Shown piece after piece: positions 14,148 to 15,020 of a DNA stretch of 15,173 nucleotides; within the stretch, counting starts at the first letter, position 1; every line of letters starts with the position of its first letter. The notes under the pieces are model-generated. The model worked only from the letters and a program-made list of their open reading frames with translations, had not been told where the DNA came from and ran no database searches. The position numbers and the translations under genes are program-made. The stretch comes from a virus. The stretch lies in the UHGV virus genome UHGV-0105671; one strand, written 5' to 3'.

Positions 14148-14379
14148 ACAGAACGAAAAATCTATCGCTCAAATTGCTGAGTATATCCCGCGTGCGTGCC
14201 GGGGTATGCAGTTGCAGGAAGCCAAAGCGCGCCTGGAGAAAAAAATTGCGCTCTATATCGATGACGGCTGTGATGCTGCCGTTCTTAACGCAGCGTTCGC
14301 GCCAGCTCTTAACAGTCATACGCGGGAGTCTTTTTTTTCGCGCATCGCAGCGCAGATCCGCAAAGGAGGCAGCCAGTGA
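14140..14379 (+). CDS. Hypothetical small protein (79 aa)
   Basis: AGGTGA Shine-Dalgarno 4 nt upstream; 8-nt overlap with the upstream gene. Confidence 0.4.
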   Translation: MFKQNEKSIAQIAEYIPRACRGMQLQEAKARLEKKIALYIDDGCDAAVLNAAFAPALNSHTRESFFSRIAAQIRKGGSQ

Positions 14380-15020
14380 GTAACCGTTTTTACATGATGT
14401 GCTCGCGTGAAACTGTGGGTAATAACGCTTCATTCCATTGCCATAACGGCAATGGTTACAGTTCTGATATCGATCGCGCTCATGTTTACACGCTGGAAGA
14501 AGCCCAAAAAGCCTGGAATTGTGGGCGAGATATAGATCAGCCTGTTTGTGCCGATAGTGTGGATACAATGGCAGTGTGGCACGTTGATTGCCAGTACATC
14601 CCTACAGAAAACCTGATTGAGCCAGATTGCACTGCGTATGTGGCCTACAAAAAAGGTAGCTGGAACAGCAACGATGTTTACTGGCTTCAACACGGTGGAT
14701 TGCCAACAGATGACTTCAGTAAAGCGACCATCTTTAGCGTCGCCAACAAAAACGAACCAGGAATAGTTTGGTTGCCATTTTCCATTGCTGATGCAGCAAA
14801 GCGCCGGACGTTCAATATCAATAACTTTAACCGCAGAACAATGGTTCAGGGCGCAGGTTTGGTCATGCCTGACTGGTTGAAAGAGCAGAACAGAAGAAAG
14901 AAGTCGCGAAGCGGGAAGGTGCGTTGGAATTGTCCGCATTGCGGAAAAATAACCTGGCAGTACAGCCCATATGATTTTGAAGGCTGTAGTGATTACAACT
15001 GTGAAGGATGGCGAGAATGA
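14376..15020 (+). CDS. Hypothetical Cys/His-rich protein with C-terminal zinc-ribbon-like motif (214 aa)
   Basis: GTG start with strong AAAGGAGG Shine-Dalgarno 6 nt upstream; C-terminus NCPHCGKITWQYSPYDFEGCSDYNCEGW plus additional Cys/His pairs (HCHNGNG, CADS...HVDC). Confidence 0.5.
   Translation: MSNRFYMMCSRETVGNNASFHCHNGNGYSSDIDRAHVYTLEEAQKAWNCGRDIDQPVCADSVDTMAVWHVDCQYIPTENLIEPDCTAYVAYKKGSWNSNDVYWLQHGGLPTDDFSKATIFSVANKNEPGIVWLPFSIADAAKRRTFNINNFNRRTMVQGAGLVMPDWLKEQNRRKKSRSGKVRWNCPHCGKITWQYSPYDFEGCSDYNCEGWRE

Follow-up and report, generated by a model that had tools for sequence, protein, structure and literature searches.

UHGV-0105671 is a viral sequence of 15,173 nucleotides (this whole stretch is hereafter called the window), and it is part of a lambdoid Escherichia coli prophage. 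Near its end lies an open reading frame (ORF) of 214 codons (14376-15020, + strand), which is a genuine protein-coding gene of mobile elements and is under selection. Profile comparison and structural modelling indicate that the first 152 residues of its product are a tandem duplication of a ~70-residue α/β domain, which precedes a conserved connector, a basic linker and a single predicted zinc ribbon. An earlier sequence-only reading of this DNA delimited the ORF correctly and recognised the C-terminal CPHC...C...C ribbon; it missed the tandem duplication, which is the main feature of the protein, and the basic linker.

The gene itself is already catalogued (as phrog_2457, Upf87.6 and “HkaG”) and hence is not a discovery. 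What appear to be undescribed are the tandem-repeat layout, the one-repeat variant, the confinement of the conserved cysteines to one ribbon and the conserved basic linker, together with a repeat that lacks a structural relative and a spread over temperate phages, phage-plasmids and large plasmids. No description of the tandem-repeat layout or of one-repeat variants was found in Pfam, NCBIfam, PADLOC or PHROGs entries or in record annotations. The family is common, strongly selected, without a Pfam domain or structural relative, and placed among the genes that mobile elements need first in a new host. It is best filed among the small zinc-ribbon early accessory proteins of mobile elements.

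Tandem repeat, basic linker and zinc ribbon

The duplication was detected by comparing profiles of the two repeats. With hhalign profiles built from 45 diverse sequences, residues 1-76 aligned with residues 84-152 over 73 columns (probability 98.3%, E 2.2e-14). The repeat was not detected by BLASTP self-comparison of the two protein halves, and from the first alignment hhalign reached no more than P = 0.0025 for it; significance came with the profiles from the diverse alignment. An AlphaFold2 model, run with a 34-sequence alignment, has a mean predicted local distance difference test (pLDDT) score of 91.2 and a predicted template modelling score of 0.75. It contains a β-hairpin, a helix and a β-α-β unit in residues 5-71 and the same order of elements again in residues 88-145, after which come two short helices (153-172), a low-confidence stretch and two short cysteine-bearing hairpins. 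The consensus of the repeat reads FYLxDSRSxxGSNxxFW...GxGYTTDLxKAxxFTxEEA...RxTDIPWPxxYVDxxxRxxVDxQ.

Repeat 1 (residues 1-80; 14376-14615, + strand), as delimited by the AlphaFold2 models, the alignment and hhalign, begins with a β-hairpin (5-14, 17-22), continues through a GY-TD-x3-A loop and a helix (40-49), and ends in a β-α-β unit (54-58, 59-65, 67-71) followed by a conserved V-D71-x-Q73 motif. Repeat 2 (residues 81-152; 14616-14831, + strand), delimited by the alignment, the model and hhalign against repeat 1, has a β-hairpin (88-97, 100-103) with a G-N99-D100-x-Y-W103 turn, then a TDF-x-KA loop, and closes with a β-α-β unit (130-134, 135-141, 142-145) that carries K142-R143-R-T-F.

The two repeats are joined to the C-terminal part by a connector (residues 153-165; 14832-14870, + strand), which is seen in both the alignment and the model and contains a short helix (153-158). 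Its motif, R154-x-M156-x-Q-G-A-G161-L162...P165, is conserved and is also retained in the one-repeat variants described below. The basic linker that follows (residues 166-182, ...KEQNRRKKSRSGKV; 14871-14921, + strand) was recognised from its isoelectric point, the charge pattern of the family and a dip in pLDDT; it is the lowest-confidence stretch of the model and is probably flexible. Residues 153-182 have an isoelectric point of 11.8 in the window protein, and across the family the median net charge is -5 for the repeats and +7 for the 30 residues before the ribbon, with the ribbon itself near neutral.

The C4 (four-cysteine) zinc ribbon occupies residues 183-214 (14922-15017, + strand; alignment and AlphaFold2 model), with the sequence R-W-N-C186-P-H-C189-G-K...C204-S-D-Y-N-C209 and the pattern C186-x2-C189-x14-C204-x4-C209 (CPHC-x14-C-x4-C). 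It is modelled as two short β-hairpins that carry the four cysteines, with strands at 182-185 and 192-195. Across an alignment of 34 diverse homologues, with identity down to 47%, C186, C189 and C204 are invariant and C209 is conserved in at least 90%. All four C-terminal cysteines are kept in each of the 40 intact homologues of a species-level sample, in which the spacing of the second pair varies by clade (C-x4-C, CxxC or C-x15-C). The region thus shows the four conserved cysteines, two knuckles and short β-hairpins of a C4 rubredoxin-knuckle ribbon, and conservation supports a single C-terminal ribbon that is predicted to bind zinc. None of the curated zinc-ribbon models was reached, neither Zn_ribbon_Top1, DUF7575 and Nop10p in Pfam nor IS1_IS1595_Zn, the YnfU family and VVA0879 in NCBIfam; the best of the Pfam and NCBIfam zinc-ribbon models score 12-15 bits against cut-offs of 27-37 bits.

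The sequence-only reading had proposed several Cys/His clusters, and the composition of the window protein (10 cysteines, or 4.7%, and six histidines, including an H21-C22-H23 run) would suit a multi-site metalloprotein whose length is dotted with several metal or redox clusters. Conservation contradicts this. The six N-terminal cysteines (C9, C22, C49, C58, C72 and C85) and the H21-C22-H23 run are unconserved in the 34-homologue alignment, and three homologues (L105-L107) have no N-terminal cysteine at all. Only the four C-terminal cysteines are conserved, which leaves a single predicted zinc ribbon in place of several Cys/His clusters and makes a multi-cluster protein very improbable. Of the nucleic-acid- or protein-binding zinc module suggested earlier, the single conserved ribbon survives and the plural metal clusters do not.

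How much of this architecture does a family member need? A homologue of 125 residues in Burkholderia phage vB_E159 (locus L140, 2992-3369) consists of one repeat, a GTGI connector, a basic linker and a CxxC-x13-CxxC ribbon, and two metagenomic proteins (P0191 and P0259, of 150 and 166 residues) likewise have one repeat, connector, basic linker and ribbon. The tandem duplication is therefore not obligatory: the family unit is one or two repeats followed by connector, basic linker and ribbon, and the natural minimum is one repeat plus linker and ribbon. In three fusion proteins of the family (P0190, P0202 and P0216) no Pfam domain was found, and the extra N-terminal segment of P0190 belongs to a different PHROG, also unknown. 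A further protein of 143 residues (P0175) combines an ASCH-like N-terminus with the final ~75 residues of the family; it may be a frameshifted, chimeric or mis-assembled gene call rather than a true fusion. Separate ASCH genes are found directly upstream of the homologue in one locus (L009) and nearby in another (L010).

Family membership, spread and selection

The 214-residue protein matches phrog_2457 of PHROGs v4 (“unknown function”) along its full length, with residues 1-214 aligned to profile positions 1-220 of 222 (E 5.5e-117). It belongs to the same family with no difference in sequence, and isolated repeats and remote homologues also map to phrog_2457 and to no other PHROG. Members include Upf87.6 of phage P7, HkaG of IME10 (as annotated) and the RefSeq protein WP_033813558, and the window coding sequence itself corresponds to a WP_033813558-like RefSeq “hypothetical protein”. 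The window protein is 96-97% identical to those of P7, SJ46 and IME10. The catalogue entry for phrog_2457 carries no function, domain description or structure, and a literature search by gene, family and accession names yielded nothing relevant on its proteins. The earlier statement that no family could be recognised thus holds for Pfam, NCBIfam and PADLOC but not for PHROGs.

A word-indexed search returned 136 clusters at 90% identity, essentially all of ~215 residues and all unnamed. When 1.84 billion cluster representatives were searched exhaustively with the profile, a cut-off of E ≤ 1e-3 gave 879 matches and one of E ≤ 1e-10 gave 197, nearly all of ~200-220 residues. Of 5,426 complete E. 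coli genomes, 279 carry the gene; it is always annotated “hypothetical protein” and is placed there in P1-like phage-plasmids (180) more often than in chromosomal prophages (109). Plasmid records with the family number 415, of which 59 are typed as conjugative and 110 as mobilisable. Among the carriers are Stx-converting phages, phages of Vibrio, Pseudomonas and Burkholderia, and large plasmids of Citrobacter, Klebsiella, Enterobacter and Acinetobacter, some of them with resistance genes.

The species-level sample, with one genome per species, comprised 43 loci from Enterobacterales, Acinetobacter, Alteromonas, Shewanella, Aeromonas, Pseudomonas, Methyloprofundus and one betaproteobacterium. 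By its own account the sequence-only reading would be undermined if homologues did not conserve the cysteines, or if related prophages lacked the ORF or had it frameshifted; the ribbon cysteines are conserved in homologues and the ORF is intact in 40 of these 43 loci. Comparison with homologues at 45-76% identity gave a non-synonymous divergence of 0.15-0.33 per site, with saturation at synonymous sites, and the only pair with a measurable dS gives a dN/dS of ~0.09. These substitution estimates indicate strong purifying selection on the gene. A 229-codon antisense ORF (14430-15119, - strand) spans nearly the whole gene and was rejected as a shadow ORF; it has no Shine-Dalgarno sequence and is broken in most homologues.

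Comparison with described families and folds gave little. Nothing in Pfam, NCBIfam or PADLOC scored above threshold for the 214-residue protein: Pfam and NCBIfam returned sub-threshold zinc-ribbon noise (E 0.03-0.15), and the sole match among the PADLOC defence models was to HEase, at chance level (E 0.052). Zinc families of the Lar/Ral restriction-alleviation and TraR/DksA types were not matched in Pfam or NCBIfam at E ≤ 1, and no helix-turn-helix (HTH) family was matched in Pfam. Searches of PDB chains with the single sequence, the family profile and the repeat profile gave chance-level or generic zinc-ribbon matches, with the repeat profile unmatched. A Foldseek search of BFVD retrieved uncharacterised viral proteins only, some of which align over one repeat at a root-mean-square deviation of 1.5-2.3 Å. 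Fold searches likewise gave the duplicated domain no detectable relative among solved structures. Within the limits of these sequence, profile and fold searches, the repeat is without a known structural relative.

The best PDB match of the family profile is the ribosomal protein eL43 (E 0.007, 19 bits), over profile positions 153-207 only, where the linker and ribbon fall on the rRNA-binding basic segment and ribbon of eL43; this is not significant as evidence of eL43/L37ae membership and is to be read as resemblance. The likeness lies in two cysteine knuckles ~14 residues apart, borne on short β-hairpins after a Lys/Arg-rich stretch, and comparable small ribbons occur in the YnfU family, the IS1/IS1595 N-terminal zinc domain and the C4 ribbon of topoisomerase I. 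Unlike eL43 and these small ribbons, the protein in the window clade has C-x4-C as its second knuckle and carries the ribbon as its last 32 residues, and the 152-residue repeat region has no counterpart there.

One existing annotation is rejected. A GenBank note on the P7 homologue Upf87.6 (locus L002, 6012-6656) calls it a putative protein tyrosine phosphatase, presumably from the H-C22 motif. The C-x5-R signature is absent, since the run H21-C22-H-N-G-N-G-Y28 has no arginine at +6, and this identification has practically no chance of being correct. C22 is replaced by arginine, glycine, alanine or serine in many homologues, and no phosphatase match was obtained in Pfam, in NCBIfam or in the fold search.

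Proposed role and alternative readings

The reading that we favour, tentatively and at less than even confidence, is that the protein is a nucleic-acid-tethered, stand-alone binder acting in establishment, host takeover or counter-defence, as predicted from its architecture and position. The basic linker and ribbon would tether the protein to nucleic acid, either the incoming DNA of the element itself or host DNA or RNA, and the conservation of the linker would fit nucleic-acid binding. The mildly acidic repeat pair may be the surface by which a host factor or a nucleic-acid structure is specifically bound. Given such a tether and such a surface, the protein would be expected to act stoichiometrically, as a binder or blocker and not as an enzyme. 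It would act on entry of the element into a cell or on derepression, and would help the incoming phage or plasmid to establish itself, to take over the host or to counter its defences. The support for the establishment reading is circumstantial, and consists of the charge pattern, the eL43-like arrangement, the placement in phage early operons and in plasmid arrays with psiA and Lar, and the enrichment of anti-defence genes in plasmid leading regions.

The genomic contexts of the family share a common denominator, which is an operon that is the first to be expressed when the element enters or is derepressed, and in which the gene keeps no fixed partner. In temperate phages this is a repressor-controlled early operon between the CI-like repressor and the integrase. 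A conserved partner was found neither in close nor in diverse loci. Around 48 diverse loci only three kinds of neighbour recur, namely a CI/LexA-type repressor (15 of 48, at a median of 4.4 kb upstream), a tyrosine integrase on the downstream side (7 of 48) and a CII-like protein, and a Pfam scan of 137 neighbour proteins from the diverse loci found no family in more than four. The P7 gene sits in the block after the C1 operator Op(hea), and the one-repeat gene of Burkholderia phage vB_E159 lies between CI and exo.

On the IncT plasmid pT-OXA-181 (loci L008, L135 and L136) the gene belongs to an array in which small ORFs point one way over ~25 kb, together with higBA, psiA and then parAB; this array adjoins SLT, traN and traG. 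In pTEM-2262 (loci L007 and L137) the gene lies ~21 kb into a one-directional array that starts at mobI(A/C) and contains dinG, Lar and ccdAB. The two plasmids are syntenic, with traG, traN and FlhC/SLT followed by a one-directional array of 25-30 kb and ~40 small hypothetical ORFs, and such arrays look promising for finding early-entry genes. Plasmid leading regions are enriched in anti-defence genes (PMC11541004). The family, pTEM-2262 and pT-OXA-181 were not found in the supplements of that study. The plasmid homologues resemble early-entry genes such as PsiA/PsiB, Lar and ArdA in lying in one-directional small-ORF arrays beside transfer genes, but phrog_2457 has no homology to any known anti-defence protein.

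Several points weigh against an establishment or counter-defence role. Every functional step is drawn from architecture and position, and the family has no characterised homologue; zinc ribbons also mediate protein-protein contacts, and the resemblance to eL43 is not significant. Recombination, regulatory and lysis-lysogeny genes are found in the early operons of temperate phages as well, and position alone is therefore no sign of counter-defence. The pTEM-2262 gene is approximately the 40th ORF from mobI, outside the “first 30 ORFs” stressed in the leading-region study (PMC11541004), and a leading-region location on the two plasmids is putative, their gene positions having been read relative to transfer genes and mobI. 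No match was found among the PADLOC models. The invariant polar residues D71, Q73, N99, D100, K142 and R154 might just as well be those of a catalytic site.

The main rival is a phage developmental regulator of the lysis-lysogeny decision or of early transcription or translation, comparable to the products of the lambdoid exo-xis region (Ea22, Orf63, Orf61 and the TraR-like Orf73), whose linker and ribbon would contact DNA, RNA or RNA polymerase. The gene lies directly upstream of, and overlaps, an Ea22-like gene in 76 of 79 close relatives, which places it in the equivalent of the exo-xis region. According to the exo-xis modelling paper (PMC8614690), exo-xis genes affect lysogenisation and induction and Orf73 is a C4 zinc protein, both of which would suit a regulator, as would the labels “DNA binding protein” and “putative zinc finger protein” that some submitters have given to homologues. 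Like the exo-xis proteins (Ea22, Ea8.5, Orf60a/61/63 and the TraR-like Orf73), the window protein is small, poorly characterised and encoded in an early leftward-type niche adjoining Ea22. It resembles none of them in sequence or fold, is not covered in the modelling paper, and belongs to a family widespread also on plasmids and in phages of Vibrio, Pseudomonas, Acinetobacter and Burkholderia. Distant homologues no longer show the link to Ea22, with only two of the 137 neighbour proteins being Ead_Ea22, and conjugative and mobilisable plasmids that carry the gene have no lysis-lysogeny decision to make. With the TraR/DksA and HTH families also unmatched in Pfam, a regulatory role is possible but doubtful. 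If the protein is a minor regulator only, the gain is a better annotation, namely a tandem-repeat domain with one ribbon that is neither a phosphatase nor a multi-cluster metalloprotein.

An enzymatic role on DNA, RNA or nucleotides, for instance as an accessory of modification or repair, is improbable. The active site would be drawn from D71, Q73, N99-D100 and K142/R143, with the ribbon positioning the substrate, and the invariant acidic, amide and basic residues in both repeats would suit such a site. Genes for DNA methyltransferases and PAPS-reductase-family proteins also recur nearby. A Dam methyltransferase gene is next to the homologue in Vibrio phage 1.205.O (locus L138, 5693-6292), and a methyltransferase gene lies four genes upstream of it in Pseudomonas phage Jeremy (locus L139, 648-2171). 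In the Pseudomonas plasmid pNY5530-NR1 (locus L009, 3121-6919) a PAPS-reductase-family gene stands between two DNA methyltransferase genes, just upstream of a homologue of 30% identity, and the window has a PAPS-reductase-family gene of its own. By raw count, methyltransferases make up five of the 137 neighbour proteins, and they are common in phage early regions anyway. Neither sequence profiles nor fold searches gave similarity to any enzyme family, and the one-repeat variants lack the repeat-2 residues, so that a composite active site would not be universal.

A more far-reaching form of the establishment proposal, unlikely on present evidence, is that the ~70-residue repeat is a new fold which defines an undescribed class of early-entry effectors of temperate phages, phage-plasmids and conjugative plasmids. 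Its members would be ribbon-tethered binders that neutralise a host defence or DNA-surveillance factor or shield the incoming DNA. Should this be true, Gammaproteobacteria and Burkholderia would share in phrog_2457 a new family of anti-defence or establishment proteins. An establishment or counter-defence factor in the broader sense would, if true, be a shared lever on phage and plasmid spread and would add a new domain to the catalogue. The protein is one of many conserved phage unknowns, yet it is unusually widespread, clearly selected, structurally unplaced and at the position of an early-entry effector.

Operon placement and mosaic surroundings

The gene starts with GTG, read directly from the sequence, 6 nt after a Shine-Dalgarno sequence AAGGAGG (14363-14369, + strand), in agreement with the strong ribosome-binding site reported earlier. 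Upstream, in the same operon, is a 79-residue ORF (14140-14379, + strand), a variable neighbour outside the conserved module, whose stop overlaps the GTG start in a GTGA tetranucleotide (14376-14379, + strand) suited to translational coupling. Downstream, the stop of the 214-codon ORF overlaps the ATG of the ead/Ea22-like gene in an ATGA tetranucleotide (15017-15020); only the start of this gene, which is the usual downstream neighbour in close relatives, is present, since it is cut by the window end (15017-15173, + strand). No promoter-like site was found within 13000-15173 and no terminator-like site from 13680 to the window end. With no such site around it, the gene is internal to a polycistronic unit, and the coupling into an accessory operon proposed in the sequence-only reading is borne out by the overlaps with both neighbours.

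The complete prophages closest to the window carry lysis genes, an OmpC-like porin gene, Q, nin-type genes, a Rha/ant region and a LexA/CI-type repressor, and the operon of the gene runs rightward of the repressor, towards the PrtN/xis-like prophage end. By megablast, P1/P7, SJ46, IME10 and Stx-converting phages match from 14348-14385, mostly from 14360-14365, around the ribosome-binding site, into the first 25-50 codons of the Ea22-like gene, while the sequence further upstream differs between phages. These boundaries are a typical lambdoid mosaic joint. In the 79 close-relative loci the upstream gene is drawn from at least seven unrelated families.

The PAPS-reductase-family gene of the window lies two small ORFs upstream of the 214-codon gene. 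It is overlapped by a YfdR-type 5'-deoxynucleotidase gene in the same early operon (12515-13947 for the pair, + strand). Further away, two Rfam matches stand side by side, a C4 antisense RNA (68 bits; 8021-8108, - strand) and the Hfq-binding small RNA isrK (60 bits; 8133-8209, - strand), both inside a 382-codon ORF (7421-8569, - strand) that corresponds to the gene for a Rha-family regulator of the related prophage. The OmpC-like porin gene (812-1954, + strand) lies between the lysis cassette and the Q antiterminator gene, on the strand opposite to both.

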